A DNA stretch of 64,000 bases. Origin: SAR324 cluster bacterium REDSEA-S27_B3 (GTDB lineage: Bacteria; SAR324; NAC60-12). The notes under the pieces were generated by a model. The model searched no databases. It was not told the DNA's origin and saw only the letters and a program-made list of their open reading frames with translations. The position numbers and the translations under genes are program-made. The first letter of the stretch is position 1; the number at the start of each line of letters is the position of its first letter. Shown in pieces: positions 5,515 through 60,079 of the stretch. The stretch covers positions 44,714 to 108,713 of the forward strand of contig LUQO01000013.1 of the NCBI GenBank assembly GCA_001627865.1, in the 5' to 3' direction.

Positions 5515-5539
5515 CTCATTTTTTTGGCTGATATTGGAC

Positions 5540-11445: not shown

Positions 11446-11503
11446 AAATAAACCTTATGATAAAAGTAAAACGTGAGGTAAAACAAACCGTAAATGATTT
11501 AAT

Positions 11504-13568: not shown

Positions 13569-13823
13569 AACAAGCCTGGAGAAGTTACTGAGCCAGTCTG
13601 GACATAAACTTACAAATTCAGCTGGCCATATCGGTAAAGAACGAAGGAGATGTTTCGCTCCTTTTGTATCTGGTATATAGATTGGAAAGAGAATTTGTGA
13701 TTGATATTTACGGTGTTAAACTGGGAATGATTTTTTCAGCCAAAAAAGCTTTGTCAGCTCATATTTGTTTCATGCAGAATTCGTGATTCCTCGGAAGACA
13801 ACTGAGTAATCTGAAAGGCATCT

Positions 13824-21769: not shown

Positions 21770-22321
21770 CTATAGTAAGTTGACCATAAAACCATGTGCT
21801 TCTAAACTGCCTTCGTTTTTTAAGTGATGTGGAAGGTCTGTGTGGTAACGCAATGTTTCTCCAGCACAAATTGACTGTAATTCATCACCAATTTTGACTG
21901 TCAGATTTCCGGAACAGAGAGTAATACTTTCCAGGCTTCCCTTTCCATGTGATTCTGAATCAAGTTCAGCGCTGGGCTCCGCGTTAAATTCGTACCACTG
22001 CACAGAAGAAACAGTGTCTAGTGTGCCCAGAATTCTCAGCCGGAATCCATTGTCTTCACTTGTCACCTCCGGAGTGGCGTTCCTGCTTAGTTTTTCAAAG
22101 CAGGTTGTTCCTCCTTTAACAGCGAGAACATTTTCCAGAGGACTTTCAAGTGCTTTGGTGATTCGCCAGATTGTGGCTAAAGTCGGATTACTGAGATCTC
22201 GTTCAATCTGTGAGAGAATTGATTTTGATACTCCTGATTTAGCAGCAAGTTGATCAAGAGTAAAATTGTGCTCCTGTCTCAGACGCTGAATTTCCTGGCC
22301 GACTTTAGGTGGTGATTCCAT
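21770..22321 (-). CDS. XRE-family HTH transcriptional regulator with C-terminal cupin domain
   Basis: HTH_XRE segment LDQLAAKSGVSKSILSQIERD plus cupin-like C-terminus. Start trimmed to internal Met (MESPPKVGQ) because the N-terminal extension of the track ORF is low-complexity and overlaps a promoter-like site. Confidence 0.6.
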   Translation of the reverse strand: MESPPKVGQEIQRLRQEHNFTLDQLAAKSGVSKSILSQIERDLSNPTLATIWRITKALESPLENVLAVKGGTTCFEKLSRNATPEVTSEDNGFRLRILGTLDTVSSVQWYEFNAEPSAELDSESHGKGSLESITLCSGNLTVKIGDELQSICAGETLRYHTDLPHHLKNEGSLEAHGFMVNLL

Positions 22322-22409
22322 TTCTGCATTACTTGTTTGATTTTCCTGATAATATAAGCGTAACAGATAATACTTGAAAAGTTTACTCAATAGATTTAAA
22401 AGGAAATGT

Positions 22410-22438
22410 TTTGACAAAATAGAAAGTCCTAGCTATTG
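22410..22438 (+). promoter_or_regulatory. Sigma70-like promoter candidate upstream of tusA / sHdr operon (TTGACA-17 bp-TATTGT)
   Basis: TTGACA at 22410-22415, 17-bp spacer, TATTGT at 22433-22438, ~100 nt upstream of tusA ATG. In the divergent intergenic region shared with the XRE-cupin regulator. Confidence 0.3.
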
Positions 22439-41127: not shown

Positions 41128-42762
41128 GTGTCCCTGATTCCAATCATGCATAGCTTTACCGCGTACCAGTGGTACTCGGCAACTCCTAAATGTCTGGTAT
41201 ATTTCTTAACGGCACTGATCATCCTGATACCTCATGCTACAGCGTTTGAGCATGAAGGGTCATCGGTAAATTTCCAGGAGTACAGCCGCGATGTAATCAG
41301 GAAAAACAGAGAGAAAAACAAGCCGTATTTTCTCCTTTTTGCCGCTCAGTGGTGTCACTGGTGTGACGTTTTCAATGAAGAAACGCTGAGCAGGAAAAAA
41401 GTGTATACCTACCTGCGAAATCATTTCACGAACATTTTCATAGACGCAGATATCCATAGCTCTGCCTACCGCAAATACAAGGCGACAGGTGTGCCTTTTA
41501 CTGTATTTTTAAATCCTGACGGTTCCCTCTATTACAAGTATGCTGGAACGCTTTATGCGGACGAATTCCTTGAGGTAATCCAGGATGTCCATAAAAATAT
41601 TTCCGAAAACAGATCTGTGGATGGGGAAGAAAATTCTCAAATAGAGTATGTCCCCCCTGCTAAACTTAAAAAAGCCGACCTGGTGAAATTACGTGAAATG
41701 TTCCACCAGGGAATTCTAGACAACTTTGACTTGAAAGAATATGGCCTTGGTACGGGTGAAAAATCCATACTTCATCAAACCTTTCTATACCTTTTACATT
41801 CTTTGAGAGGAACCGACAGGAAAGATGCCATTCGATGGATCACCAGGACTCTGGAAAAAGCAGTTGAGCATATTTACGATCCGGTCGAAGGGGGATTTTT
41901 CCGGTATGCTGAAAAAAAGGACTGGCAAATACCACACTATGAAAAAATGGCTGACCTGAATGCCGGCGCTGTTATGATTATGTATGAAATCAACAGGCAA
42001 AGTCCCTCTCCTGATTTGAAAAAAGCTGCAGATAAAACCGTGCAATATTTGACTTCGACATTGTTTGAACCGAATATAGGCTCTTTTTTGAGTTTCCAGG
42101 AAGCAGATACTTCATACTATTTTCTGAGTGGTGATCACCGCAAGCATGAGCATCGGCCCAATGTTGTAGAAAAGGTTTTTACCGACCGACTTGCAAAAAC
42201 TCTTGTTTATCTGATAGATGTGCTCGACTACACCACACGGAATTCACTGGAGGAGAAGGTAACCCAGTCTCTTGATTTTATGGCAGAAATGATTCTCAAT
42301 AATGATCAGCTATACCATTACTATTCTATTTCAGAAAGGCAGTGGCTTCGCAGCGGCAGTCTGCCCGACTACGCCTATTCTGCGACACTGTTTCTCAAAG
42401 CAGCAACAAAATTTCAAAGCAATCATTACCATGAGGTTGCCATGAAGATTCTACGGCTGTCAAAGGCAAGGTTCCACGACGCAGAAAAACGGATCTTTTT
42501 CGATCCATCTATGGACAGTTTAGATGATGTAGAGTATCTCATGGAGATGAACGGGCTGTTTGCCCAAATGATGTTAGACATGGAAATGATCCAGTGGACA
42601 AACGATGATCATCGAAACCAAACAGAACCGATGATAACCTATTTTTCTGCAATGGAAGAGTTGCTTGAAGACCAAATTTGGGATGCTGAAAACTGGAAGT
42701 TTGCTGAGCGTTATGTACCTTACTTGAAAGCTGTTGACAAATTCCTTGCTTCCAGGGAGTAA
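41128..42762 (+). CDS. Thioredoxin-domain protein (DUF255/YyaL-like) with (alpha/alpha)6-barrel-like C-terminal region
   Basis: N-terminal TM, thioredoxin motif AAQWCHWCDVF, long C-terminal domain. Confidence 0.55.
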   Translation: MSLIPIMHSFTAYQWYSATPKCLVYFLTALIILIPHATAFEHEGSSVNFQEYSRDVIRKNREKNKPYFLLFAAQWCHWCDVFNEETLSRKKVYTYLRNHFTNIFIDADIHSSAYRKYKATGVPFTVFLNPDGSLYYKYAGTLYADEFLEVIQDVHKNISENRSVDGEENSQIEYVPPAKLKKADLVKLREMFHQGILDNFDLKEYGLGTGEKSILHQTFLYLLHSLRGTDRKDAIRWITRTLEKAVEHIYDPVEGGFFRYAEKKDWQIPHYEKMADLNAGAVMIMYEINRQSPSPDLKKAADKTVQYLTSTLFEPNIGSFLSFQEADTSYYFLSGDHRKHEHRPNVVEKVFTDRLAKTLVYLIDVLDYTTRNSLEEKVTQSLDFMAEMILNNDQLYHYYSISERQWLRSGSLPDYAYSATLFLKAATKFQSNHYHEVAMKILRLSKARFHDAEKRIFFDPSMDSLDDVEYLMEMNGLFAQMMLDMEMIQWTNDDHRNQTEPMITYFSAMEELLEDQIWDAENWKFAERYVPYLKAVDKFLASRE

Positions 42763-43135
42763 ACATGTATTGCATTTTCGACGTGAATATCTAAAGACCT
42801 GCGATTATTTTGATAATTCTATTCAGTATTTATTAATGCTGAACCTGATTTAACCTCAGATTTTTTTCTTGCAAAAAAAGTGTATAGTGATATATTCGAT
42901 ATATCGGATTATTGTTTAATATAATAAACAAGTTTAAATTTTTACTCAAAATTCACTGAATTTGAATGGTAACCACTAGTATGTTTGGGTTCTTATGCTA
43001 AACCAGAACGTCATAAGATCTACTGCTTCGTCCGGAATGACAAGCCTAAGTAAGTAATTTCAGTATCTTATGGTAACCCGTGAGCCAAATAATACACAGA
43101 ATAATTTAAAGATTAAGTCAGAAATAAGGAGAGTT

Positions 43136-43423
43136 ATGGGAGTATTGATTGAAATACCTTCTGCATTAAAACAATATGTAAACAACCAGGATGAGGTCGA
43201 AGTTGACGGCAGCTCAGTTGAAGAGGCATTAGATTCTTTATGCACACAATTCATTGAACTCAAACCAAACCTGTTTGATGAAAATGGCATAGTCAGAAAT
43301 TTCATCAATGTCTATCTCAATGATGATGACATTCGCTATGCTGATGGCATGAAGAGTACTGTTAAGGACGGAGACAGCATTCAGATTGTCCCTTCAGTAG
43401 CGGGAGGATCTGTATACAGCTAA
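43136..43423 (+). CDS. MoaD/ThiS/CysO-family ubiquitin-like sulfur-carrier protein with C-terminal extension after GlyGly
   Basis: RBS AAGGAGAG upstream of ATG 43136. Beta-grasp-like sequence ending ...IQIVPSVAGG-SVYS-stop. Four residues after GG imply proteolytic maturation. Confidence 0.6.
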   Translation: MGVLIEIPSALKQYVNNQDEVEVDGSSVEEALDSLCTQFIELKPNLFDENGIVRNFINVYLNDDDIRYADGMKSTVKDGDSIQIVPSVAGGSVYS

Positions 43424-43434
43424 AAAAGGGCAAA

Positions 43435-44170
43435 ATGACTTTAAATAATGAGGAAATCAACCGCTACAGCCGGCACCTGACTTTGCCTGAAGTCGGCATG
43501 GGGGGTCAGTTGAAGTTGAAAGAGGCCAAAGTACTGATGATTGGAGCCGGGGGTCTGGGATCGCCATTGGGAATGTATCTGGGTGCTGTGGGAATCGGGA
43601 AACTCGGGTTAGTTGATTTCGATGTAGTTGATCACACAAATTTGCACAGACAGATAGCGCATGCCGCGTCTGATGAGGGCCGGCCTAAAGTTCATTCTCT
43701 ATGCGACACAATTCTAGCGGGTAATTCCAATATTGAAGTTGAGGTGCATAATATTCGCCTTGAGCGTGAAAACGTTCTGGAACTGTTCGGGCAATATGAC
43801 ATCATTGCTGACGGATCCGATAATTTTGAGACTCGATACCTGATCAATGACGCGGCATATTTTACTAAAAAGCCGCTTGTATCTGCTTCAATTTTTCGCT
43901 TCCAGGGACAGATAACAATCTTTGATCCTGAGTCCGGAGGGCCATGTTACCGGTGTCTCTACTCAGAACCTCCTCCTGCCGCACTGGTTCCAAGTTGAGC
44001 AGTTGCGGGAGTCCTGGGCGTGCTCCCGGGAGTTGTTGGACTGATACAGGCCACAGAAGTAATTAAGCTGATTCTGGAGAATGGAGTTCCCCTTATGGGA
44101 CGCTTGCTCTTGTATGACGCCATGAAGATGAATTTCAAAGAGGTACGTGTCTGCAGTACAGGAAGAATTT
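43435..44170 (+). CDS. MoeB/ThiF/MoeZ-type E1-like adenylyltransferase with in-frame TGA (candidate selenocysteine) at the conserved Cys position
   Basis: Nucleotide-binding motif GAGGLGSP. CxxC (PCYRCL). ORF stops at TGA 43996-43998, but the same frame continues with AVAGVLGVLPGVVGLIQATEVIKL... which aligns to MoeB TCVEAGVMAPLIGVIGSLQAMEAIKML. The TGA occupies the Cys187(MoeB)/Cys184(ThiF) position. Confidence 0.55.
43996..44028 (+). promoter_or_regulatory. Candidate SECIS-like hairpin immediately downstream of the in-frame UGA
   Basis: 7-nt spacer after UGA, then 6-bp GC-rich stem CGGGAG (44006-44011) / CTCCCG (44023-44028) with 11-nt loop UCCUGGGCGUG carrying GG/GU ~18-22 nt after UGA. 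Confidence 0.35.
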
Positions 44171-44497
44171 GACGAGGACTCATTTGAGCTTTCCCCCCTG
44201 GAATTCAAAACTGCGCTTGAGCAGGACCTTGGAGCAGTGCTGATTGATGTTCGAGAACAATATGAATGGGACATCTGCTACATTGACGGCGCAAGGTTGT
44301 TGCCAACCAGCAGTTTTGATCCCTCAACCAGCGGACTGGATACGGAAACACCGATATATTTATATTGCTACAAAGGTCAGCGTTCAATGACAGCTTTGAA
44401 GGAACTCTGGAACGCCGGTTACAAAAATCTTAAAAACCTGAAGGGTGGCATTGATCTCTGGGCGGAAGAAGTTGATCCGGATATGCCGCAATATTAA
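44147..44497 (+). CDS. Rhodanese-domain sulfurtransferase (MoeZ-type C-terminal domain, here in +1 frame relative to the E1 gene)
   Basis: Rhodanese motifs LIDVREQYEWDICYIDGA and active-site Cys loop CYKGQRS. GTG start at 44147 overlaps the E1 3' end by 24 nt. Upstream residues in this frame match the MoeZ linker. Confidence 0.6.
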   Translation: MSAVQEEFDEDSFELSPLEFKTALEQDLGAVLIDVREQYEWDICYIDGARLLPTSSFDPSTSGLDTETPIYLYCYKGQRSMTALKELWNAGYKNLKNLKGGIDLWAEEVDPDMPQY

Positions 44498-44577
44498 TCC
44501 TGAAAAAGTCAACGTTCAGACAGCAAAATCTCAATGGCTATCAAAATAATGCTTCTGTTCCTCGTATAGGTTGAGGA

Positions 44578-44716
44578 CCATTGTCATCCCGGACTTGATC
44601 CGGGATCCAGATTCATGATAAAGCCTTCTCTGGACTTGATCCGGGTTTAACACCGTATTTGAAGCATTTCCACTGGATTCCGGGACTGCGCTTTGCTTCG
44701 CCCGGAATGACATCCG
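44578..44716. repeat. Repeat-rich intergenic region: hairpin TCCCGGA-cttga-TCCGGGA, direct 14-nt repeat GGACTTGATCCGGG (x2) and hairpin TTCCGGG-N16-CCCGGAATGACATC
   Basis: Seen directly in sequence between the rhodanese stop and the JAMM-PLP start. Shares GTCAT(T)CCCGG / CCCGGAATGAC arms with elements at 8.86 kb and 59.17 kb. Confidence 0.4.
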
Positions 44717-44804
44717 AGGCAGTTATTATGACCTTTTACTTCATTATCATCAATTAGTAATAGTTTTTTTGAATGTTATATTCATCGGGAAAAAACTGAG
44801 TTAA

Positions 44805-47060
44805 ATGGAGATCCCGGAAAATATATTAACAGAGTGTCATGAGTACGGAGTAGCAGCTTATCCGGAAGAGACCTGTGGCTTTATCATAGGAAATCGGGAA
44901 GTTCCGGATTCGCTTGAGACTGTATTGCCGATGCGCAATATCATGAATGATCTGCATGAGAAGGATCCGGCGCAGTATCCGCGTACCGCCCGTGACGGAT
45001 ATGTGATTGATCCGCTGGAGCAATTGAAACTTGAACGTTCCCTTAAAAAAGAAGGGAAGGAAATTAAAGTAATTTATCACAGTCATCCGGATGTTGGGGC
45101 TTATTTCTCAGCAAAAGACAAGGAAGACGCGCTGTGGAACGGGAAGGCGCGTTATCCCGGTGTAAGTTTTCTGGTCTGCGGAACAACCGATGGAAAACCT
45201 GATGGGGCTATTATTGCGGACTTTAATCAGGACAGCGGAGATTTTGATATAACTCCGGTTACTGTCAATTCATCTGCAGCGTCCGGGGGTCTTGTAGGTG
45301 GCACTTTTGGAATTACCGGAATCCTGCCCACCATTGATTTCATTCATGAGTGGAAAAATGGAAATCGTGAACTGCAGTACGGATATTTTCGTTTTGTTAA
45401 CCACCAGCACATCAAAGACCTGCATGCAGAGTTGTGTTCCCGTTCAGGAGCAAGGTACGCGCTCACTTACTGTTCCGGAAGCGCCGCTCTATTTGAACTG
45501 TTGATTTATCTGCGTGAATCCCTCCCAAATATAAATCTTTATTTTTCCTCCAATTCAGCTCTTTCTGCTGACGGAATCCAGAGCCTTGAAATTTCGTGTA
45601 AATCGCTTGATCTGAAAAATCTGATTGATCCGGAGTTGCTGTCCGCAAAGAACGGAGATGTTTTGCTGTTGGCGATGGAAGCTCCGGAATTATTTGTAAA
45701 AGAAAATTCAGAATGGCTGGCAAAATTAAAACGCCAGAGGGTGACAGTTATTTTTTACTCCTCAAATCTGCAGGCTTCTGATCAGTGGCCAGTCGGACTT
45801 ACTTTCTGGATATCTGCAATCAGCAGTCCGGAAACAGCTACAAAACATTCCGGAATTGAAGGCGGAGTAATCCTCAGCAACGCGGACCGGCAGATTGCTG
45901 AATTGACTGAGACACGCAAACGTAACGGTTCTGTTCTGTCCGCCCGCAATGCCGCGGTTTTGCTCAAAATGCTGAAGGAAGAAGATACAGATTTGCATGA
46001 CATTGCCAAACTTTCCGGAATTAACAAAACCTGGGAACTTTCAAATCCGGAGCAGAAGATTACAGAAAAGTTATGTGAATGGGAACATGCCACAGCCGGT
46101 TTTTTATTTCCTTCAGGCATGTCGGCAGTTCATTCCGTGATGAATCTTCTGCGTAAAAAAAGCAAAAACCAGGTTATCGTGATCGGTTTAATGTACAGCG
46201 ACAGCTACAACCTGCTGATGAGTCCGGGACGATCATCCAGATGGGAGGCTGAATTTGTCGGGCTGGATGAACTGGAGAAGTTAGATCAGATTATTTCTGA
46301 GAATACCGCAATGATTGTCACTGAAACAATAACAAATCCTCTTGTGGAGGTACCAGATTTAAACAGGATCGGAGATATTGCTTCGGCGCATGAAGTGCCG
46401 TTTGTTGTTGATAACACGATTGCCTCTCCGGTAAATTGCCAGCCAATAGACTACGGAGCGGATTATGTAATTCACAGCACCACCAAATATCTGAGCGGCA
46501 GCAATGATCACGCTGGTGGAGTTGTGCTGGCAAAAAATTCACGGAACGCTTCCGCAATCGAGAATTTCCGACGCTGCTGGGGACTGAGGTTATCTCCTTT
46601 AGAGTCAACAGTTCTCTGGGAATGCATGCAGGACTTTGCTGAACGGATGGCTCGGTTTAACTCAAACTGCACTGCCGTGGCTGATTTCCTGTCTGAGCAT
46701 GCAGCAGTTGATATGGTTTACCATCCATCTCAAAGTTCTCATTCTTCATATTTCACTGCAAAAAAACTGCTCAGCGGAAATGGAGGAGTGGTCAGTTTCA
46801 CTCTGAAGGACGAAAGTGAAAATGCTTTGAAGATATTCCATGACAAAGAATTTTCTTCAATAATCAAGGCACCGTCAATTGGTTCAAATCAAACCTTGAT
46901 TTGTCCGTACCCAATGCTGACACACTATTTTGACACTGATGAAGATCTCAGGGAAATCAAGCTGCCTCGTCACCTGATCCGTGTCTCTGTGGGCTGCGAA
47001 ACAGAAATTGAGGGGATATTAACTGATTTAGACTGCGCGCTGAAAAGGACTATTCAGTAA
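44805..47060 (+). CDS. Fusion protein: N-terminal JAMM/MPN+ metalloprotease (Mec+/HcyD/QbsD-like), central degenerate PLP-like region, C-terminal Cys/Met-metabolism PLP-dependent enzyme (MetY/CGS-like sulfhydrylase)
   Basis: JAMM motif HSHPDVGAYFSAKD with upstream EETCGFIIG. C-terminal domain with PLP-lysine motif HSTTKYLSGSNDHAGG and typical end LIRVSVGCE. Central ~250 aa faintly resemble a second aminotransferase-fold fragment. Confidence 0.7.
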   Translation: MEIPENILTECHEYGVAAYPEETCGFIIGNREVPDSLETVLPMRNIMNDLHEKDPAQYPRTARDGYVIDPLEQLKLERSLKKEGKEIKVIYHSHPDVGAYFSAKDKEDALWNGKARYPGVSFLVCGTTDGKPDGAIIADFNQDSGDFDITPVTVNSSAASGGLVGGTFGITGILPTIDFIHEWKNGNRELQYGYFRFVNHQHIKDLHAELCSRSGARYALTYCSGSAALFELLIYLRESLPNINLYFSSNSALSADGIQSLEISCKSLDLKNLIDPELLSAKNGDVLLLAMEAPELFVKENSEWLAKLKRQRVTVIFYSSNLQASDQWPVGLTFWISAISSPETATKHSGIEGGVILSNADRQIAELTETRKRNGSVLSARNAAVLLKMLKEEDTDLHDIAKLSGINKTWELSNPEQKITEKLCEWEHATAGFLFPSGMSAVHSVMNLLRKKSKNQVIVIGLMYSDSYNLLMSPGRSSRWEAEFVGLDELEKLDQIISENTAMIVTETITNPLVEVPDLNRIGDIASAHEVPFVVDNTIASPVNCQPIDYGADYVIHSTTKYLSGSNDHAGGVVLAKNSRNASAIENFRRCWGLRLSPLESTVLWECMQDFAERMARFNSNCTAVADFLSEHAAVDMVYHPSQSSHSSYFTAKKLLSGNGGVVSFTLKDESENALKIFHDKEFSSIIKAPSIGSNQTLICPYPMLTHYFDTDEDLREIKLPRHLIRVSVGCETEIEGILTDLDCALKRTIQ

Positions 47061-47340
47061 CATAATCAACCACGATGGAACCGGAACATAGATTCCGCAT
47101 GGTTTCAAGAACAGGTAAATGGTTAGGATGTTCGGCGTAGGCAGTCAAGCCTTCCTTATCATCAAAATGTGTGGTAAGCACAAAATCATAGGAGCGTTCC
47201 GATTCCTTGAAATCCACACCAACCTCAATATAGCGTAAAGATTCAACCTTTCCTTCCAGACTCCTCAAAGTAGAAACCGCGTGATCCATATTTTCCGAGG
47301 TTTTTTCTTTGAGTTTGAACATTACAATATGCTTGACCAT
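47050..47340 (-). CDS. Dabb-type stress-responsive alpha+beta barrel protein
   Basis: 96 aa, MVKHIVMFKLKE...YAEHPNHL pattern typical of Dabb/YciI-like proteins. Confidence 0.5.
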   Translation of the reverse strand: MVKHIVMFKLKEKTSENMDHAVSTLRSLEGKVESLRYIEVGVDFKESERSYDFVLTTHFDDKEGLTAYAEHPNHLPVLETMRNLCSGSIVVDYVTE

Positions 47341-47347
47341 ATTTCTC

Positions 47348-48580
47348 CTATGTTTCCAAGATAAGTCTGTGATAGCGCTTTTTGCCTGCTCTCAGCAGAA
47401 TTTGCTGATCCTGCAAATCAGTTTCTTCAAGACAGAAGTCCGGATCATCAATGCGTTGATTGTTAACATATACTCCGCCCTGTGACTGTAATCGACGGGC
47501 TTCGCCTTTTGATTTGCAGAGACCTGTTTCCATAAAAATATCAAAAATTCCAAGTCCTGCTGAAAAACGCGAGGAATCAATTGTGGTGCTGGGTACATTT
47601 GATTTGCCCGCGTCACCTGCTGATGCGCTTTCGGAAAAAAGTGACTCTGCCGCCTGTTGAGCCTGACTTGCTTTTTCACTGCCATGAACAATTGCGGTTG
47701 TTTCAAAAGCCAGCCGCTGTTTGGCCTGCCGTATGTCTGCTCCCCGGAGTTTACCGAGTTCCCTCACTTCAGCCATCGGCAGGAAAGTAAACAAGGCCAG
47801 GAATCTTTCTACGTCATCATCTTCCGTGTTGATCCAGTACTGGTAATATTCGTAAGGAGAGGTACGTTTTGGATCAAGCCAGACTGCGCCCTTTTCCGTT
47901 TTCCCCATTTTTTTTCCGGATGATGTAGTCAGCAGCGGATATGTCCAGCCGAAGGCATCCTTGCGTTCAACGCGGCGTATCAAATCTGTTCCTGAAATGA
48001 TATTTGCCCACTGGTCATCACCGCCCATCTGCAGAACACAGCCGTAGCGTCTGTTCAGCTCCAGGAAATCATAAGCCTGCAGAAGCTGATAATTGAATTC
48101 AAGAAAACTCAGTCCGGTGTCAAACCTTACCTTGTAAGTCTCAAATGAAAGCATACGGTTAACCGAAAAATGCCGTCCGATGTCACGCAGGAAATCGATG
48201 TAATTCAAATCGCGCAGCCATTCAGAGTTGTTCACAAGCACGGCATCTTGACTGAAGTCCAGGAAACGCTCAAATTGGGGGAGCATCCCTTCAATATTTG
48301 ATTGCAGCTGCTCTTCTGTCAGCATCTTGCGAATCTCTGTTTTACCGCTCGGATCACCGATCATAGCGGTTCCGCCGCCCATCAGTGCGATTATTCTGTG
48401 TCCTCCTCTCTGCATGTGTGCCAGTCCCATCAGCGGGATCAGATGTCCTACATGCATTGAGTCCGCCGTGGGATCGAATCCAATGTAACAGCAAATCCGG
48501 TCTTTTTTCAGACATTCTGCCAGCTCATCCGGATGAGTACTTTGTTGATAAAAGCCACGATCTTTGAGTTCTTCCAGCAT
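47348..48580 (-). CDS. tyrS: Tyrosyl-tRNA synthetase
   Basis: Class I motifs HVGHLIP (HIGH) and KMGKTE (KMSKS-like), C-terminal S4 domain. 410 aa. Confidence 0.85.
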   Translation of the reverse strand: MLEELKDRGFYQQSTHPDELAECLKKDRICCYIGFDPTADSMHVGHLIPLMGLAHMQRGGHRIIALMGGGTAMIGDPSGKTEIRKMLTEEQLQSNIEGMLPQFERFLDFSQDAVLVNNSEWLRDLNYIDFLRDIGRHFSVNRMLSFETYKVRFDTGLSFLEFNYQLLQAYDFLELNRRYGCVLQMGGDDQWANIISGTDLIRRVERKDAFGWTYPLLTTSSGKKMGKTEKGAVWLDPKRTSPYEYYQYWINTEDDDVERFLALFTFLPMAEVRELGKLRGADIRQAKQRLAFETTAIVHGSEKASQAQQAAESLFSESASAGDAGKSNVPSTTIDSSRFSAGLGIFDIFMETGLCKSKGEARRLQSQGGVYVNNQRIDDPDFCLEETDLQDQQILLRAGKKRYHRLILET

Positions 48581-53371: not shown

Positions 53372-54454
53372 ATGAGAAATCATCTCTTCATCACTTTATC
53401 CTGCCTGCTTTTCAGCTCAACCCTGTTTGCCCAGCAAACCGGTATACTCTATCAATGGGAAACCTCTCCCGGCAAAACCTGGAAAACATTTGGAGATCAG
53501 GACGCGCAGCTGAAATACGAAGGTGAAATAAAAAATGGCATACCTGAGGGATTGGGCGTGTCTTCGTTCCATGGCACAACTTATCTTGGTCAATGGCAGA
53601 ATGGAAAAAAACACGGAAGGGGAACATACACCTCTTCTTTTGGAATAAGGTACACAGGAGAATTCAAGCAGGGCAGACGGGACGGGAAAGGAACACTGAC
53701 ATCGCCAGACGGAGAGAAATATGTGGGCGGATTCAAGGATGGCAAGCGGGACGGACAGGGGATCTTCACTTCACCTGATGGAGAAAAGTATGTAGGGGAA
53801 TTCAGGCAGGGCAAATATCATGGACAGGGGACTTTTACCTGGTCAGATGGGACACAGTATATAGGTGTTTTCAGGAAAGGACTTCAAGCCGGTGAGGGAA
53901 CATTAACTTATGGAAAAGGGGAAACAGAAGGCGACAGATATGAAGGCGAATTCAAGGAGGGCAGAAAACATGGCCAGGGGACCTACATTTCTGCTGATGG
54001 CAGAAAATATGTTGGGGAGTGGATAGAGAGCAAACATGATGTCCATGTAATCCTCTCACTTCCAGATGGAGATAAATATACAGGCGGATGGAAAGCAGGC
54101 AGGCTGCATGGCCAGGGGACTTACTATTTCTCAGACGGTGCCATTTACCAGGGTGAGTTCAAAGATGGGAAACGACATGGCCGGGGAACAAATACATGGG
54201 CAGATGGAAGTAAATATGATGGAGAATGGCTGGGTGGTAAAAGGCATGGTCATGGAGTTTTCAGCTGGGCTGATGGTGAAAGCTATATGGGTGAATGGAA
54301 AGATGGTAAGTATAATGGCCAGGGAACTTACACTTTAGCAGACGGCAGAAAAGGAGTGGGTGAGTTCAGAGATGATAAACCGTGGAACATCACGAATTAT
54401 GACAGCTTCGGGCATGAGATAGGCAGCTGGGTTGAAGGTGAAAAAAAGTATTAA
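53372..54454 (+). CDS. MORN-repeat secreted protein (family member 3)
   Basis: Signal peptide, ~12 MORN units, C-terminal DKPWNITNYDSFGHEIGSWVEGEKKY. Confidence 0.65.
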   Translation: MRNHLFITLSCLLFSSTLFAQQTGILYQWETSPGKTWKTFGDQDAQLKYEGEIKNGIPEGLGVSSFHGTTYLGQWQNGKKHGRGTYTSSFGIRYTGEFKQGRRDGKGTLTSPDGEKYVGGFKDGKRDGQGIFTSPDGEKYVGEFRQGKYHGQGTFTWSDGTQYIGVFRKGLQAGEGTLTYGKGETEGDRYEGEFKEGRKHGQGTYISADGRKYVGEWIESKHDVHVILSLPDGDKYTGGWKAGRLHGQGTYYFSDGAIYQGEFKDGKRHGRGTNTWADGSKYDGEWLGGKRHGHGVFSWADGESYMGEWKDGKYNGQGTYTLADGRKGVGEFRDDKPWNITNYDSFGHEIGSWVEGEKKY

Positions 54455-54899
54455 TTGGCCTGAAAAAATAAAAAAATCAGGCACGGTTTTACTGATTATT
54501 TCTTTCGGACTGTTCCTGATTTCCTGCGGGACTGAAAGCAGCACTTCAGAAAGCAGCGCCACTGAAAGTTCCGCCTACAGTGACAATGGCACAACATTCA
54601 AAGTTACAGTAAGCTCATACAAATATTACATAGATGGATCTATGCAGACGTCATTGACCTTGAAACAGGGCTACACCTATTATTTTGACGCGACTGATTC
54701 AACAACCGATAATCATCCTTTATTTATCGGCACAACTTCAGCTGGAGGAAGCTATACTTATGAATATACTTCCGGAGTGACAAAAAGCCGTACCACAACA
54801 GAGACTTTAACCTTCATTGTTCCTTCAGACGCACCGTCGACTCTTTATTATAATTGCGGGAGTCACACCCTGATGGGCGGTATAATAAACATCATGTAG
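54432..54899 (+). CDS. Cupredoxin-like (type-1 copper site-like) lipoprotein
   Basis: Lipobox LISC, Ser/Thr-rich linker, C-terminal YYNCGSHTLMGG resembling the Cys-x2-His-x2-Met blue-copper loop, with upstream His (DNHPLF). Confidence 0.4.
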   Translation: MKVKKSINWPEKIKKSGTVLLIISFGLFLISCGTESSTSESSATESSAYSDNGTTFKVTVSSYKYYIDGSMQTSLTLKQGYTYYFDATDSTTDNHPLFIGTTSAGGSYTYEYTSGVTKSRTTTETLTFIVPSDAPSTLYYNCGSHTLMGGIINIM

Positions 54900-55022
54900 C
54901 CAGGTACCTTCTTTGTTTAAGTTCGGACTTCTATTCAAATGCCCGCAACTTGCCTGATTCTTGAAATACACAGCATGATAGTATATGTTAGGCAAAAATA
55001 ATCCAACCACTCAGGAAATATT

Positions 55023-55931
55023 ATGAAAAAAATTTTACTACTCTTCATTTGCCTCATTTATTTTACTTTTCCTCTGTTTGCTCAGTCAAATGCGTCCCAT
55101 GTCATTTACCGTTGGAATAATGGAACGAAGTATGTTGGAGAATGGAAGAATGGCAAAATGCACGGTCACGGTACATACACTTATGGAATCGGGGTCGGAG
55201 AAGGAGACAGGTATGTGGGTGAATACAGCAATGGAATCAGAAATGGTAAGGGAACCTACACCTGGTACAATGGAGACAGTTATACCGGAGAATTCAAGGG
55301 TGATTTACCAAATGGTCTGGGAACATATACATTCTCAGATGGTAGAAAGTACGTCGGAGGATGGCAGGATGGTAAAAGGGAAGGACACGGGACATACACA
55401 TTTCCTGATGGTGCCAGGTACGTAGGCGCATGGAAGAATGGATTGAGAAACGGCCATGGCACATTTACCTGGTCTGATGGCGAGAATTACGATGGAAACT
55501 GGAAAGATGGTAAAATGGAAGGTCATGGAACCTACACTTTTAACAGCGGCTCAAAGTATTTCGGTGAATGGCATGATGGCAAATGGGGAGGTCAAGGCAG
55601 ATTCACCTGGTTCAGCGGTGAAAAGTACGCAGGAAACTGGAAGGAAGGCAAGAGAAATGGTCAGGGAACACTCAACTGGCAAGGTGGTGATAAGTACGAG
55701 GGTGACTGGAAAGACGGAAAAAGGGCAGGACAGGGGACCCTCAATTATTCTGATGGAAGTATGTATCAAGGGGAATGGTTGGATGGAACATTGAATGGTC
55801 TGGGTACATTCACTTCCTTCGATGGAAGAAAATGGGTTGGTGAATTCAGGAATGACCAACCGTGGAATCTTACACTCTATGATAAATCAGGCAAAGTAAT
55901 CGAAAAGTGGTTTAACGGCAAGAAACAGTAA
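55023..55931 (+). CDS. MORN-repeat secreted protein (family member 4)
   Basis: Signal peptide, ~11 MORN units, C-terminal NDQPWNLTLYDKSGKVIEKWFNGKKQ. Confidence 0.65.
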   Translation: MKKILLLFICLIYFTFPLFAQSNASHVIYRWNNGTKYVGEWKNGKMHGHGTYTYGIGVGEGDRYVGEYSNGIRNGKGTYTWYNGDSYTGEFKGDLPNGLGTYTFSDGRKYVGGWQDGKREGHGTYTFPDGARYVGAWKNGLRNGHGTFTWSDGENYDGNWKDGKMEGHGTYTFNSGSKYFGEWHDGKWGGQGRFTWFSGEKYAGNWKEGKRNGQGTLNWQGGDKYEGDWKDGKRAGQGTLNYSDGSMYQGEWLDGTLNGLGTFTSFDGRKWVGEFRNDQPWNLTLYDKSGKVIEKWFNGKKQ

Positions 55932-55957
55932 TTCAATTCATTAATACCTCTTAGTTG

Positions 55958-56032
55958 CCCTCACCTCGACACTTCCTTTACTCTAACCCTCTCCCAGGGG
56001 GAGAGGGGGGACCGAATGCGGTGGGTGAGGGG
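55958..56032. repeat. Nested palindromic element CCCTCACC...CCCTCTCCC-aggg-GGAGAGGGG...GGTGAGGGG
   Basis: Inner perfect inverted repeat (ccctctccc/gggagaggg) nested in outer inverted repeat (ccctcacc/ggtgaggg), 27 nt after a MORN gene stop. A second copy sits at 59941-60016. Confidence 0.4.
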
Positions 56033-56553
56033 AAGATAACAATCCTCAGTCTCTGCATCCCGGAACAAACCCCAGGCAAAACACCAGGCACACTGCCGCA
56101 AGCCTCAAAGTATTTAACAAAAACAGCACAATCAGGAACATCCCATGCATAAACGGATTTAAGTCCTGATAAGAGAATAATCCAACCATTGCGGGGGAAT
56201 ATGCAAGTTGCAGATAAAAATGAATCAAATATGGACCCTAGAGTTTGTCCTAACTGTGGCGAGTCCTGTGAAAAAGAATATGAAACTGTTTTTGTTAACG
56301 GTCAGGAATACTGTGTTTGCTGTAATTCCAATATAGAACCGTGCTTTACAGAAGATGGTGTCACTGAGGAAATTTTCAGCGATGCTGGAGGAAATGAAAA
56401 CGTTTTCGCGGATTTTTTCGAAGAGCGGAGATTTCTCAATCCACAGTGATTTACTGCCTCCAACCTCCTGATTCAGCTTCCATTTAGTCTTTTTGGCATT
56501 TTCATTGCTGTTATTATATTTATCCACTTAAGTAACAGTTTATGGAGGTATCA

Positions 56554-56694
56554 TGAAAAATACAGAATGCATAATTTGTGGCGATCAGGTCATCAATCCA
56601 CTGCAAAAGCAGCAGTCTAAAAGACTGTATTGTTCTGAGAGGTGCGAACGTATTCCGTCTGTATTTCAGAAATGGAATGAATTCCAGGTCTGAT
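56554..56694 (+). CDS. Small zinc-ribbon protein (YacG-like C4 pattern), 46 aa
   Basis: RBS GGAGGT 5 nt upstream of ATG. MKNTECIICGDQV...LYCSERCERIP. Below the ORF-track length cutoff. Confidence 0.25.
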
Positions 56695-56869
56695 TGATCA
56701 GCTGATTAATTGCTTCAGATCTTCCCGGTAATAAAGTCCGCAAAAAAAATCCCTTTCAGTTTTGTTTATTGTTTAACTTTGCCGGAATAATAATGTCTTG
56801 TTATCACCTTCTGTATCTGATCAACTTTACAGAAAACATCTCTTAAAGTAATTCTTTCGGAGCATAGCA

Positions 56870-57481
56870 ATGATTGTCCTTATAATTGGAATTGTTATTT
56901 TCTTAGGTGTTCATTTAATCCCTCTCACAGACCTAAGAAATTCATTGATTGCAAGCATGGGGGAGAAAAAATACCAGGGCCTGTTTGCATTAATTTCTTT
57001 AGTCGGATTAGTAATCATTATCTATGGTTTCAGACAGATTGATGACTGCAATCCGATGATGGCAGATTGTGATACAGATAACATATTTCTCTGGGAGCCA
57101 TTTGCATACAGCAGGGAAATATCATTTCTTTTAATGCCGTTCAGCATAATTTTTATTGCTGCTTCATTAGTTCAATCAAATCTTACCAGGATCCTGCGTC
57201 ATCCAATGCTGATTGGTGTTTTAATCTGGTCATTTTGTCATTTACTTTCTAATGGTGATTTAAGATCAATCATTTTATTTGCGTCTTTAGGCGTGTATTC
57301 AATCATAGATATTATATACACCAGGAAAGCTGCTCCGCCTGCAATCAGTTTTCCTGCTTCAAAAGACGCGATGGTCATTGCTTCCGGCTTAATTGCTTAT
57401 TCTGTTTTACTGTATTTTCACCAATATGTTTCAGGAGAGCAGATAGTTGAAAAAAACAATTTGTTCTTTTTCCTGCCGTAG
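56870..57481 (+). CDS. Polytopic membrane protein (NnrU-like family suspected)
   Basis: ~6 TM helices, 203 aa, no soluble domain. Confidence 0.4.
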   Translation: MIVLIIGIVIFLGVHLIPLTDLRNSLIASMGEKKYQGLFALISLVGLVIIIYGFRQIDDCNPMMADCDTDNIFLWEPFAYSREISFLLMPFSIIFIAASLVQSNLTRILRHPMLIGVLIWSFCHLLSNGDLRSIILFASLGVYSIIDIIYTRKAAPPAISFPASKDAMVIASGLIAYSVLLYFHQYVSGEQIVEKNNLFFFLP

Positions 57482-57557
57482 TAATTCACAATCTATCCCC
57501 ATTTCTTGTAAAATCTACAAGATTATGGTATATCATGGGTTCTCCTGATCTAATTTT

Positions 57558-58718
57558 TTGGCGAATCCCATGAAATATATACTCCTCACATTTACATTTC
57601 TTTTTCTGTTATCCCCTCTCTTTGGCCAGTCCGAAGAGAGTATTCAGTTTGAAACATTTTATCAGGAAGCGAAAACCGACAATTCCGGAGATGCCACTAA
57701 ACAGGAGCTTAAACCTGAACAGGAAAAACTTCCTGAAACTGAACCTGACACAGAACCGGGTCCGTTGTCTGATCCGGATCCTTCCCCGCTGACAATTACA
57801 GAACCTGAGGTTTTGCTTGATCCAACAGCTGATGCAGAACCTGAGCCTGTTGCCGGACCACAGCCGGAGCAAACACCTGTCGAGGAACCTCTAATAGTAA
57901 CTGACACGGAAGCTGAATCTGAAAAGGATTCCGGAAAATCGGAATCTTCACCGCAACAATCCGGGAATGAATCTGAAGCTGCGCCAGAGGAAAAACGGCA
58001 TGGAGCTTTGTTTTACCGTCAGCAGAATGGCGCCTGGGGATGGTATGAATATGGAGATGAAGACAAGGATGGTAAATATGTGGGAGACATTGTAAATATG
58101 AAACCAAACGGTTACGGAACATTTGTTTATGGTAAAGGGAAATGGGAGGGAGACAAGTACGAAGGACAGTGGAATGATGGTGAATATCATGGGCAGGGCA
58201 TTTTCATTAGCGAAAGCGGGCAGAAGTTCAAGGGTGAATGGCAGCACAGTGTTCCCTGGAACATTACCGGTTACGACAAATTTGGGAAAATAATCAAAAA
58301 GTATAGAAATGGCGTACAGGTATTTGTCCGGAAAAAAACTGTGTCAGCGAAGAAATCTGTGGTTAAAAAAAGAACAAGAGGAATACTTTACAGGGAAGTC
58401 CCTCGTTCAAAATGGGAGCGCGGAGGGAAAAAGTGGATGAGTAACGGTGACGAAAAAATTCATGGGAAATATGAAGGAGACATATTGGACGGTCTTCCGG
58501 ACGGATATGGTACGTACACCTGGTACAATGTGGAAAAATATGAAGGAGAATTCAAGAGAGGTTTTTTCCATGGTCAGGGAAAATTTACCTACCTGAGTGG
58601 ACTTACCGTGGAAGGCGAATTCAGGAAACAAAGGGAATGGAACACCATGCGCGTTGAAGAAAACGGGGAGGCTTCCGGAAAGTACGTCAATGGCAGATAC
58701 TATCCTTTGAAACCCTGA
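57558..58718 (+). CDS. MORN-repeat secreted protein with Pro/Glu-rich linker (family member 5)
   Basis: Signal peptide. Acidic P/E-rich low-complexity segment. Two MORN blocks, each ending with the PWN(I)T...YDKFGK..KKY motif. Confidence 0.6.
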   Translation: MANPMKYILLTFTFLFLLSPLFGQSEESIQFETFYQEAKTDNSGDATKQELKPEQEKLPETEPDTEPGPLSDPDPSPLTITEPEVLLDPTADAEPEPVAGPQPEQTPVEEPLIVTDTEAESEKDSGKSESSPQQSGNESEAAPEEKRHGALFYRQQNGAWGWYEYGDEDKDGKYVGDIVNMKPNGYGTFVYGKGKWEGDKYEGQWNDGEYHGQGIFISESGQKFKGEWQHSVPWNITGYDKFGKIIKKYRNGVQVFVRKKTVSAKKSVVKKRTRGILYREVPRSKWERGGKKWMSNGDEKIHGKYEGDILDGLPDGYGTYTWYNVEKYEGEFKRGFFHGQGKFTYLSGLTVEGEFRKQREWNTMRVEENGEASGKYVNGRYYPLKP

Positions 58719-58740
58719 AAACAGAGTCGCTTCCTGCTAT

Positions 58741-59124
58741 TTACGTTTTCATCATTTGCGACGAATGATGATGCTTGATTGGATTTTCACTCAGGGGGTC
58801 GATCAGAAAAGTAAATCTTGCAGGGACTTTTTTATCAGCACCTAAATAGAAAAAATATTTTCCTGTAAGTATAAATATATTCTCACTGACTTCATCTTCA
58901 AGAATAGAGTCATGCTGCAGCTCGACTGACGCTTTTTGTTCTTCAATAACTTTCTCAAAATATTCTTTTATCTGTTTTTGTTCTGAAAGTATTTCTACAG
59001 AAAAAGTTGGCATCATCACACAGCTTTTGTGATAGAGCCTCAATATACCCGATAAATTCCCCTCATTCAGATACTGATTCCAGCTGTGCAGTACTTCTAT
59101 TGTTTTAAACTTCACAATGTTCAT
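58741..59124 (-). CDS. NTF2-like (SnoaL/DUF4440-type) domain protein
   Basis: 127 aa with cone-shaped alpha+beta barrel sequence pattern; weak assignment. Confidence 0.4.
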   Translation of the reverse strand: MNIVKFKTIEVLHSWNQYLNEGNLSGILRLYHKSCVMMPTFSVEILSEQKQIKEYFEKVIEEQKASVELQHDSILEDEVSENIFILTGKYFFYLGADKKVPARFTFLIDPLSENPIKHHHSSQMMKT

Positions 59125-59168
59125 TTTCTAAATTGTTTCTTGATTCTGGCTTTTTGATTTAAAAAAAT

Positions 59169-59193
59169 GTCATTCCTGCGTAAGCGGGAATCC
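59169..59193. repeat. Weak palindromic GTCATTCC-TGCGTAAGC-GGGAATCC element
   Basis: Shares GTCATTCC / GGGAATC arms with repeats at 8.86 and 44.6-44.7 kb. Confidence 0.25.
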
Positions 59194-59940
59194 AGAGAAA
59201 TAATATTTGGAGATCACAAATTGTGATCTCCTATTCTGAAGATATTATGAAGCTAATGTATCTGCTAATTACCTTAACAGTACAAGGACGTGCGATGCTG
59301 ATCAAGAACTTTACGAGAAGATTACTACTTTTGTTCAGGAAAACTATTGAACCATTTCAGTTGTATCAGGAGATCATTAAAGTATTTGACCTGGATTTGG
59401 GGGCCATTTCATATTTCTCCACGTTTCACAAGCCATCATCATGCGTGATATTCCACTCAGCACAAATTTCTTGATCCTCATTGGCAGTTGCCATGTAGCC
59501 TTCTTTTAATATTTGCTTCTGATCAATCTCACGGACACGAATTAGTTTTCCCTTATAGCATTCGTAATGAACTCGGATTTGTTGGAGAATTCATACAATG
59601 GTTGTTTTAAATCTGCAGGAAGTGTGATATTAAGTCGAAAACTACTCATAATTCCCTTTATTGCAATTATTAGTATCCATGCTAATTATCCCCAAATGTT
59701 CTTAAACTTCAAGAAAAAACATGATTATGAAATCGACCATAGGTCAAGGACAATTTTTATGCAGATTGAAGGTGTTATATTTTGACTTTAACTGAATTAA
59801 TCATTCTGCTTTTATTAGCAAAATCAGTTTCAGACACCTCTAAGGTAAAATCCTCTGTTATTGTAAAATACCAGAAAAGGTGATATATATTTGGTGCACA
59901 TTATAGTCTTTCTAAATAAGGTTGATACATCTCCCGTTTA

Positions 59941-60016
59941 ACCCTCACCCCAACCCTCTCCCCGTGGGAGAGGGGGCCGCGATACCATAGCGAAGACGAA
60001 AGTGCAGTTGGTGAGG
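59941..60016. repeat. Nested palindromic element CCCTCACC-ccaa-CCCTCTCCCC-gtgg-GAGAGGGGG...GGTGAGGG (second copy)
   Basis: Same architecture as 55958-56032; ~65 nt upstream of the last MORN gene start. Confidence 0.4.
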
Positions 60017-60079
60017 GATGAGGAAACAAGACGCACAAAAGTTATTTAGGATCACTATAACGAACCATCAGTCAGCCAA

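Follow-up and report, generated by a model that had tools for sequence, protein, structure and literature searches.

We analysed a 64,000-nucleotide (nt) stretch of DNA, hereafter the window, from the SAR324 cluster bacterium REDSEA-S27_B3 (assembly GCA_001627865.1, contig LUQO01000013.1, positions 44,714 to 108,713), with a focus on four open reading frames (ORFs) located on the plus strand at positions 43136-47060. These had been read in an original prediction, made from the letters of the sequence, as a sulfur-carrier system consisting of a ubiquitin-like carrier ending in GG-SVYS, a ThiF-type E1 enzyme, a rhodanese and a protein of 751 amino acids (aa) that joins a JAMM protease to a pyridoxal-5'-phosphate (PLP) enzyme through an intervening region. 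All four ORFs lie where they had been placed, the motifs that had been quoted from them, HSHPDVGAYFSAKD and HSTTKYLSGSNDHAGG, are found in the 751-aa protein, and because the Pfam matches are far beyond chance the described features stand. Over 8256 nt, the sequence of the window matches a contig of assembly GCA_001628555.1 exactly.

The carrier and the fused JAMM-PLP protein

The first gene (43136-43423) is preceded by a good Shine-Dalgarno sequence and encodes a CysO/ThiS-type ubiquitin-like sulfur carrier of 95 aa (Pfam ThiS, 6.4e-11, above the gathering score). Its closest solved relatives are 4n6e_B (2e-17) and the CysO protein of Mycobacterium tuberculosis (3dwg_C, 1.6e-14), and the alignment is full-length up to the GlyGly. 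The protein ends in VAGGSVYS, with the GlyGly encoded at 43403-43408 and the four-residue tail SVYS at 43409-43420, followed by the stop codon. The GlyGly is invariant in the orthologues of the carrier, and the tail beyond it ranges from 0 to 7 aa, a variability that is consistent with a removable pro-sequence. In the window, exposing the GlyGly would take processing of the carrier, in line with the claim that it must be unmasked. Since some carriers are tail-less, trimming cannot be the only conserved role of the JAMM domain.

The fourth gene (44805-47060) encodes the 751-aa protein, with matches to both Prok-JAB and Cys_Met_Meta_PP. A total of 46 cluster representatives contain at least one of its two domains, with identities to the query of 44-99%. 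Both Pfam domains are present in 43 of these, including 42 full-length proteins (750-785 aa) and one partial sequence of 672 aa, and the other three are shorter fragments with a single domain each. The named sources of the relatives are SAR324 cluster bacterium or Deltaproteobacteria bacterium TL4. The fusion gene is broken into two ORFs (5165-5884 and 5925-7472) in one SAR324 genome, FRAM18_bin343 (L019, 5165-7472), which points to a frameshift, to a stop codon or to an error in sequencing.

The JAMM/MPN+ metalloprotease domain covers residues 1-155 (44805-45269; Prok-JAB, 1.4e-16, residues 5-127), and its best solved relative is a bacterial Mov34/MPN protein (2kcq, 4.7e-11). We assessed residue invariance in this domain and in the PLP domain from an alignment of 32 homologues of the 751-aa protein. 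Residues E21/E22, H92, H94, S102 and D105 are invariant, and the metal-binding and catalytic set E...HxH...S...D is complete, as the original prediction had proposed. Genes for a ThiS-like carrier and for an E1 are associated with the domain in the genome. In the CysO/CysM/Mec+ and HcyS/MetY/HcyD systems, the JAMM enzyme hydrolyses the carrier-amino-acid amide that arises from an S-to-N acyl shift, and JAMM domains are repeatedly fused or juxtaposed to parts of carrier-dependent pathways. Locus L041 (6001-9823), which comes from another organism, encodes a triple fusion of 620 aa, JAB::ThiF::rhodanese, and next a PALP protein (CysK/CysM-type fold) and a hexapeptide-repeat (Hexapep) protein.

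The C-terminal domain (residues 406-751 and the stop codon, 46020-47060) is a catalytic Cys/Met-family PLP domain of fold type I and the gamma-family (PF01053, 4.4e-79, residues 414-747), with a score of 266 bits against a gathering score of 27. Residues S437-G438-M439, Y464, D536, S558, K561, S694 and R726 are invariant, and the roles covered in this copy include the Schiff-base Lys, the Asp at PLP-N1, the ring-stacking Tyr, the phosphate loop and the carboxylate-binding Arg. Sequence matches in the PDB are to cystathionine gamma-lyases (CGL), cystathionine gamma-synthase (CGS) and methionine gamma-lyases (MGL), up to 2e-44 and at approximately 30% identity, and a Foldseek search gave template modelling (TM) scores to the target of about 0.8.

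A degenerate region of about 250 aa had been described between the two domains. Such a region does exist (residues 160-405, 45282-46019, about 245 aa), but it is not a mere pseudo-domain: it is an internal duplicate of the PLP domain, shared with a wider family in which the JAMM domain is absent. It consists of a duplicated N-segment and a PLP large domain, without the C-terminal small domain. Within the family, residues 196-404 align to residues 409-622 with an hhalign probability of 94% (E 1.3e-7, 207 columns), and the central region alone matches positions 37-245 of the PF01053 profile (E 5.3e-5, below the gathering score). Structure prediction, which had been suggested as a check on this region, gave an AlphaFold2 (AF2) model with a predicted local distance difference test score (pLDDT) of 78 and a predicted TM score (pTM) of 0.78, the best matches of which are Cys/Met-family PLP folds, namely MGL, CalE6 and MetY of Wolinella succinogenes (E about 1e-9, TM 0.62-0.65). 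A comparison of the central lobe with a two-sequence MetY profile produced a weak match (hhalign probability 11%), and the homology of the lobe therefore rests on the intra-family comparison, the Pfam match and the fold search.

Y318 and S341 occupy the places of D536 and K561, which makes the central lobe catalytically dead. The lobe carries an invariant G193-Y194-x-R196, followed by N199, and the catalytic copy starts just past this Y-x-R segment, with TWELSNPE there instead. In this enzyme family, the Y-x-R...N(PT) segment reaches into the active site of the partner subunit. We hypothesize from these patterns that the dead lobe replaces the partner subunit, such that the polypeptide would form an intramolecular pseudo-heterodimer with one active site. 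The single-chain P-protein of glycine decarboxylase is likewise a tandem duplication of a fold-type-I PLP enzyme that forms a pseudo-dimer with one PLP-binding half; the analogy is structural only, as the family and the reaction are unrelated to those of the window protein. We refer to the combination of the dead and the catalytic lobe as double-PLP.

The E1 gene, its in-frame TGA and a local deletion

The second gene encodes a MoeZ/ThiF-type E1 adenylyltransferase (43435-44172, 245 codons when read through an in-frame TGA; Pfam ThiF, 1.7e-57) with the Gly-rich nucleotide-binding motif IGAGGLGS. The E1 ORF as originally delineated stops at the TGA (43996-43998), which is located in the context VPS-TGA-AVAGVLGVLPG and aligns with the conserved active-site Cys of the E1 enzymes (VPS-U-AVAGVLG). 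In the relatives L002-L006, reading through the TGA yields an intact E1 of 385 aa with a second CxxC motif (EC(A/S/V)LCG) and an in-frame C-terminal rhodanese domain, and this predicted product has the MoeZ-type architecture. With U replaced by C, the intact E1 of L005 scores 437.6 bits with the NCBIfam MoeZ equivalog, below the cut-off of 647, and the MoeB subfamily model PRK05690 is passed by the E1 (288.6 against a cut-off of 266).

TGA is found at the Cys position in the window and in 54 related loci, as compared to TGC or TGT in 19 outgroup loci. The former include 20 species-representative SAR324-clade genome contigs (L007-L024, L030, L006) and three metagenome contigs, together 23 loci among which the identity of the E1 goes down to 58%, plus 31 further metagenome loci. 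The latter are five outgroups with TGC (Chthoniobacterales, Chloroflexi and others) and 14 non-SAR324 loci with TGC or TGT. Every relative maintains an open frame of about 198 codons beyond the TGA.

A candidate bacterial selenocysteine insertion sequence (SECIS) hairpin is located at 44012-44031, with a stem of 6-7 bp, the hexaloop CGUGCU and a GU at +25/+26 from the U of the UGA. The third positions of codons +5 to +9 after the TGA are 88-100% conserved, against roughly 33-60% in most other nearby four-fold-degenerate codons. Across 20 distinct sequences, the pairs of the candidate hairpin form in 90.7% of the alignment cells; no double compensatory changes were seen, and the sequence is too conserved to reveal them. 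The helix of minimum free energy obtained from the single sequence after the UGA is paired in only 73.6% of the cells and was dropped for the 23-29/36-42 helix. Single-sequence folding after the UGA was not significant (z-score -0.32), and an Rfam scan of positions 42700-47400 in E-value mode gave no SECIS, riboswitch or other credible RNA. A search for tRNA-Sec in the window and 34 loci found none, and neither SelA, SelB, SelD nor tRNA-Sec was seen in the window or in the fetched loci. We interpret the TGA at 43996-43998 as a probable selenocysteine codon with a probable SECIS.

A selenoprotein family named 'MoeB' has been predicted from Sargasso Sea and Global Ocean Sampling data (PMC1088965; PMC2398784) and remains in a review from 2026 (PMC13188914). 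According to the accessible portions of these articles, the marine 'MoeB' selenoprotein comes from ocean samples and is an E1 of PF00899 that contains one in-frame UGA, a description that the E1 in the window fits, and the same portions give neither operon context nor partner proteins (PMC1088965; PMC2398784; PMC13188914). Here, by comparison, the E1 is tied to an operon with the carrier and the JAMM::double-PLP gene and is assigned to SAR324. Three SAR324-clade genomes (L022-L024) contain a TGA-containing E1-rhodanese gene without detectable carrier or JAMM/double-PLP neighbours, and the selenoprotein E1 is thus not always linked to this operon.

The rhodanese domain in the window is encoded by an ORF of 116 aa (44147-44497; Pfam Rhodanese, 1.6e-16, active-site loop CYKGQRS), which is in the +1 frame relative to the E1, overlaps with the E1 end by 26 nt and has a poorly spaced GTG start. 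The two had originally been taken for normal separate genes, but they are one TGA-containing gene in every relative and have been split here by a deletion and a frameshift. Alignment with L005 and L006 places the junction of a 95-nt deletion at 44154/44155. The deletion takes out RKDPEC(A/S)LCG...PGTE, and with it the second CxxC zinc motif. It also causes a frameshift, so that the E1 terminates at 44172 with the sequence VRVCSTGRI. The E1 in the window has kept the first CxxC (CYRC) and lacks the second, whereas both are present in all relatives examined, and the rhodanese, which is an in-frame C-terminal fusion in the relatives, is not part of the same polypeptide. MoeB activity requires both CxxC motifs, and the deletion, if real, should cripple activation in this genome.

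The deletion is either a strain-level lesion or an assembly artefact. The system in the window could accordingly be decaying or inactive, with no thiocarboxylate made, or the deletion could be artefactual and the operon intact, a pair of explanations that we consider possible, although we lean against them. The deletion is unique to the window sequence, being found in 0 of the other approximately 55 loci, among them relatives with a 95% identical E1-rhodanese and, as in L005, a 98% identical fusion protein, and the deletion-specific 116-aa product is present on two contigs as compared to three for the identical 751-aa protein. Against decay or artefact, neither the carrier gene nor the gene for the 751-aa protein is damaged, both share 98-99% identity with those of the relatives, and the deletion-bearing sequence recurs identically in the public metagenome-assembled genome GCA_001628555.1, though this possibly represents the same assembly.

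The double-PLP family and its gene neighbourhoods

An exhaustive HMMER search of 1.84 billion representatives identified about 25 representatives of JAMM-less double-PLP proteins (545-606 aa), which match residues ~160-750 of the window protein at 35-45% identity. The nearest true single-domain relatives have at most about 36% identity. Three apparent single-domain relatives with 46-47% identity (P0062, P0070 and P0085) proved to be truncated gene calls, with starts that fall within the central lobe. A word-indexed search gave P0047 as the nearest single-domain relative, which is an ordinary MetY beside MetX/MetW and is uninformative on the fusion. Six longer proteins of 715-935 aa (P0093-P0096, P0107 and P0127) are unrelated: they are PALP+PLP fusions or have two intact PLP domains in tandem. 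Double-PLP proteins occur in SAR324, Lambdaproteobacteria, Spirochaetia and Marinimicrobia, and their source annotations are only 'PLP-dependent transferase' or 'cystathionine beta-lyase/gamma-synthase.' The Y-x-R segment, the Lys and the Asp are invariant also in 20 JAMM-less members.

The gene contexts were surveyed in 80 metagenome loci and four others, with neighbours scored by phmmer; 77 of these loci contain a double-PLP ORF. The JAMM domain is fused to it in 34 of the 77. Of these fused loci, 19 have 2.5 kb or more of upstream sequence, and an E1 is present in every one of the 19. Another 19 loci are unfused and extend for 2.5 kb or more in both directions, and a JAMM, ThiS or E1 gene is found in the flank in 9 of them. 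In two SAR324 loci (L121 and L123), a helix-turn-helix (HTH)-cupin regulator, the carrier, the E1(TGA)-rhodanese, a separate JAMM and the double-PLP gene follow each other in this order, and in two shorter contigs (L120 and L122) a separate JAMM gene is located immediately 5' of the double-PLP gene. The operon with a separate JAMM gene in these four loci looks like the precursor state of the fusion.

Outside these operons, the double-PLP gene is associated with other genes for sulfur amino acid metabolism. At L046, a standalone JAMM gene, a 590-aa double-PLP gene, a gene for an ArsR-HTH/S-adenosylmethionine (SAM)-methyltransferase regulator and MetH are found in this order, and the same downstream genes are present at L047. 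In about 12 non-SAR324 loci, the double-PLP gene adjoins a gene for a ThiS::ThiF::rhodanese (carrier::E1::rhodanese) fusion with a TGC or TGT Cys codon and, where the contig permits, JAMM and CysM-like PALP genes complete the convergent operon. One such arrangement is seen on the minus strand of L043 (9886-12712), in which an operon is convergent with a JAMM-less double-PLP gene and encodes a JAMM, a CysM-like protein and a ThiS::ThiF::rhodanese protein of 474 aa, the latter with a Cys codon. A true MetY gene is located approximately 1 kb upstream of the double-PLP gene in seven loci (TIGR01326, 591-600 bits against a cut-off of 495), and the MetY at L108 scores 709 with PRK08134 against a cut-off of 636. 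The SAR324-clade genome L020 has ThiS, E1(TGA)-rhodanese and a standalone JAMM near a true MetY, and the 8.2 kb retrieved for this locus contain no double-PLP gene.

The immediate surroundings of the operon in the window include several repeats. A spacer of 307 nt (44498-44804), equal in length in L005 and about 60 nt long in more distant relatives, separates the rhodanese ORF from the fusion gene and contains GGACTTGATCCGGG twice, in identical copies. A 19-nt direct repeat, TGCTTCG(T/C)CCGGAATGACA, brackets the carrier-E1-rhodanese unit at 43024-43042 and 44694-44712 (2 matches against 0.02 expected by chance), and the repeats around this unit are possibly a small repeat element. Downstream, a minus-strand gene of 96 aa for a Dabb (stress-responsive alpha/beta barrel) protein (47050-47340) is convergent with the fusion gene, which it overlaps by 11 nt. 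This neighbour, followed by TyrRS and RecR, is kept in most SAR324 loci.

Upstream of the carrier gene lies a sulfur-oxidation island of about 20.7 kb (22418-43135), bordered on the other side by an HTH_3 regulator on the minus strand (21770-22417). It contains genes for DsrE, a GcvH-like lipoate-binding protein, sHdr-like CCG/Fer4/FAD subunits, Rieske, electron transfer flavoprotein alpha and beta, an HdrD-like protein, a YeeE-type sulfur transporter, SoxY, a SoxB-like protein, SoxZ, cytochrome c, DUF302, SCO1 and a DUF255 thioredoxin-like protein. In the SAR324 contigs L002-L004, the same block of FGE-sulfatase, LETM1-like, Kdo-transferase-like and HTH regulator genes on the upstream side directly abuts the carrier gene, and the island therefore looks inserted in the sub-lineage of the window. 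The GC content is 0.49 at 23-35 kb and 0.38 at 35-42.8 kb. Further upstream (9351-15548), two lipoate-protein-ligase-like and two radical-SAM genes are followed by a second gene for a SoxB-like metallophosphoesterase/5'-nucleotidase (13824-15548), a gene set that we take to resemble the lipoylation machinery accompanying sHdr systems. MORN-repeat proteins are encoded in series at the other end of the window, at 53372-61486 (53372-54454, 55023-55931, 57558-58718 and 60080-61486).

A proposed pathway and its alternatives

The operon has counterparts in several known systems. The CysO/MoeZ/Mec+/CysM system of M. tuberculosis likewise has a CysO-type carrier, an E1 with a C-terminal rhodanese, a JAMM enzyme that releases the amino acid and a PLP enzyme that uses the thiocarboxylate. 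However, CysM is of fold type II, whereas the PLP enzyme here is of fold type I (Cys_Met_Meta_PP), internally duplicated and fused to the JAMM domain; moreover, the E1 here has a TGA in place of the Cys codon, the carrier has a tail after the GG and the product is probably homocysteine. In the HcyS/HcyF/HcyD/MetY system of W. succinogenes, a C-terminal extension of the carrier is cut off by a JAMM protease and the MetY route makes homocysteine. The same kinds of parts are present as separate genes in L020. The MetY enzyme of W. succinogenes uses the carrier thiocarboxylate (PMC8191291); the PLP domain here differs in not being a MetY, in the additional dead lobe and in its fusion to the JAMM domain. 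The MetO/MoeZ/Mec/MetM pathway of Streptomyces, a thiocarboxylate pathway that starts from O-phosphohomoserine (GapMind 2026 preprint), follows the same logic, with a carrier, MoeZ, a Mec-type JAMM and a PLP homocysteine synthase, but MetM is threonine-synthase-like (fold type II), and neither a fusion nor selenocysteine is reported there.

Gene neighbourhoods of this type were catalogued by Iyer, Burroughs and Aravind in 2006. Rows 4b-4e of their compilation contain ThiS/MoaD, JAB and E1-rhodanese genes, some with a cysteine synthase or an O-acetylhomoserine sulfhydrylase, and the core trio is shared with the operon in the window (PMC1779556). The HcyF-type operons in the accessible part of that study are without rhodanese, as opposed to the E1 considered here, and neither a JAB::PLP fusion nor an internally duplicated PLP enzyme is described in that part (PMC1779556).

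We consider it moderately probable that the operon encodes a thiocarboxylate-dependent homocysteine or cysteine synthase coupled to an adduct hydrolase, and the most likely product would be homocysteine. The thiocarboxylate reading is supported by the homology of the parts: the carrier is CysO-like, the E1 is MoeZ/MoeB-like, and the JAMM and PLP residues are invariant. The preference for homocysteine over cysteine comes from the contexts with MetH, MetY and SahR-like genes, and from the separate CysM-like gene in the non-SAR324 carrier operons. The reading as a whole builds on domain identities, residue conservation, the alternation of TGA and Cys codons and gene linkage, from which we infer every chemical step.

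The reaction sequence could run as follows. The JAMM domain would strip the tail of the carrier to expose the GlyGly, and the C-terminus would then be adenylated by the E1. Sulfane sulfur on the Cys of the rhodanese would turn the adenylated carrier into a thiocarboxylate, with Sec188 acting either as the acyl-accepting nucleophile, forming a selenoester, or as the resolver of an acyl-persulfide. The C-terminal PLP domain, with Tyr194 and Arg196 donated to its single active site by the dead lobe, would convert an activated homoserine (O-acetyl, O-succinyl or O-phospho) into a vinylglycine or aminoacrylate-type PLP intermediate, onto which the carrier thiocarboxylate would add. After an S-to-N acyl shift, the fused JAMM would hydrolyse the carrier-homocysteine amide to yield free homocysteine and recycle the carrier. 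The fusion would thereby unite the enzyme that makes the adduct with the enzyme that cleaves it; a fusion of a JAMM domain to a PLP synthase is to be expected if one of them acts on what the other produces.

The core of the original prediction, in which the E1 and rhodanese make the thiocarboxylate, the JAMM unmasks the carrier and the PLP domain uses it, fits the homology and the comparative context and in this sense is partly supported. The route cannot be called self-contained, however, as the operon has no enzyme that activates homoserine or serine. The statement that the PLP domain is complete and of the sulfhydrylase class is borne out as far as the general gamma-family catalytic residues are concerned, all of which are present, but not at the level of the subfamily. 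No equivalog cut-off for MetY, MetZ, MetB, MetC or MGL is reached, nor does the JAMM-less homologue P0206 reach those for CGS, CGL, cystathionine beta-lyase (CBL), MGL and MetZ, and the label 'sulfhydrylase' is one that we take from the context.

Several observations count against our interpretation. The best NCBIfam score of the PLP domain is 206 bits with PRK08574, the cut-off of which is 477, and the MetY model TIGR01326 gives 196 bits against a cut-off of 495, compared to 571-709 bits for the true MetY neighbours. The domain is without the MetY insertion of about 32 aa, and lyases are among its top structural and sequence neighbours. The full-length AF2 model is of moderate quality (pLDDT 74.9, pTM 0.70), with disorder around the Y-x-R segment. 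Next to a MetY, another homocysteine synthase would seem redundant, and the adjacency could mean that the double-PLP enzyme performs a different, non-redundant reaction. Neither this region nor 20 related loci yielded a homoserine acyltransferase or kinase, and no SAM or S-adenosylhomocysteine riboswitch was detected in Rfam scans of the same 20 loci (at gathering thresholds) and of this region. The E1 in the window is devoid of its second CxxC and unlinked from its rhodanese, no carrier system is seen in the flanks of TL4 or of several JAMM-less loci, and a pair of single-cell genomes from SAR324 have been listed as 'orphan SelD,' that is, as having SelD only (PMC5029168).

The main sub-variant is that the same architecture yields cysteine. 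The PLP domain, as a fold-type-I stand-in for CysM, would then use the carrier thiocarboxylate for beta-replacement on O-acetyl- or O-phospho-serine, and the JAMM would free cysteine in the manner of Mec+. The similarity of the carrier, which is highest to CysO proteins, would agree with this scenario, as would the lack of a CysM-like gene in the SAR324 operon and the second-best NCBIfam match of the PLP domain, which is to the OAH_OAS_sulfhy subfamily model. We nevertheless regard cysteine as an unlikely product. The non-SAR324 carrier operons already hold a CysM-like PALP beside the double-PLP gene, which suggests another job for the latter, the genes found in its contexts are those for MetH, MetY and a SahR-like regulator rather than cysteine genes, and the Cys_Met_Meta_PP family is mostly gamma-specific.

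The main alternative to a homocysteine or cysteine synthase is that the PLP domain acts on the donor side, as a C-S lyase or desulfhydrase similar to CGL and MGL. Sulfide or persulfide from cysteine, cystine or homocysteine would be loaded onto the rhodanese, the thiocarboxylate would serve another process, such as the thiolation of cofactors or tRNA, and the JAMM would only mature the carrier. The best PDB matches, to cystathionine gamma-lyases, a cystathionine gamma-synthase and methionine gamma-lyases, point in this direction, and the operon has no acceptor-activating gene and adjoins the sulfur-oxidation island in the lineage of the window. It is hard to explain, though, why a sulfur donor should be fused or adjacent to a JAMM across lineages, and why the JAMM is kept even with tail-less carriers. 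Since the contexts with MetH, MetY and CysM-like genes indicate amino-acid synthesis, and the identity to the lyases is only about 30% with no lyase equivalog cut-off reached, we judge a donor-side function to be quite improbable.

Least plausible, and in our view very improbable, is a SAMP/Urm1-type conjugation and deconjugation system composed of the carrier, E1 and JAMM, with the PLP enzyme as target or regulated partner: the NCBIfam SAMP1 model gives 60.7 bits on the carrier against a cut-off of 60, but the scores of the SAMP-activating E1 model UbaA on the E1 (319 bits, cut-off 450) and of the desampylase model on the standalone JAMMs of L020 and L046 (46.4 and 41.9 bits, cut-off 130) are far below the cut-offs, the rhodanese domain of the E1 is dedicated to sulfur transfer, there are no E2- or E3-like genes and the association with sulfur amino-acid enzymes is steady.

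The pathway logic of the preferred reading, a carrier-dependent synthase coupled to an adduct hydrolase, is already known, the ThiS+JAB+E1-rhodanese neighbourhoods have been described and a MoeB selenoprotein has been predicted. A literature search for JAMM-PLP fusions or SAR324 methionine synthesis returned nothing relevant, and the JAMM::dead-PLP::PLP fusion, the double-PLP family and its link to a carrier, and the assignment of the probable selenocysteine E1 to this operon in SAR324 appear to be undescribed in the literature searched. Few protein-thiocarboxylate routes to cysteine or homocysteine have been characterised so far, and the present fusion, in the sense of a Rosetta stone, provides independent support for the idea that a JAMM hydrolase and a PLP synthase share one carrier adduct. 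The double-PLP proteins represent a widespread unnamed PLP subfamily, members of which are likely to be mis-scored by pathway tools as missing or as transsulfuration enzymes. The operon also gives a context to the long-predicted marine 'MoeB' selenoprotein and makes the role of Cys or selenocysteine in the E1 experimentally approachable.

As SAR324 is uncultured and abundant, its route to methionine bears on its metabolic models. We tentatively hypothesize, while holding this to be rather doubtful, that the double-PLP enzymes are a distinct class of obligate one-site pseudo-heterodimers dedicated to protein-thiocarboxylate sulfur, and that in SAR324 the hydrolase-fused form, together with a selenoester-forming selenocysteine E1, may constitute the main route to homocysteine. 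If so, sulfane sulfur from lithotrophic sulfur oxidation would be assimilated without passing through a pool of free sulfide in a very abundant lineage of the dark ocean.

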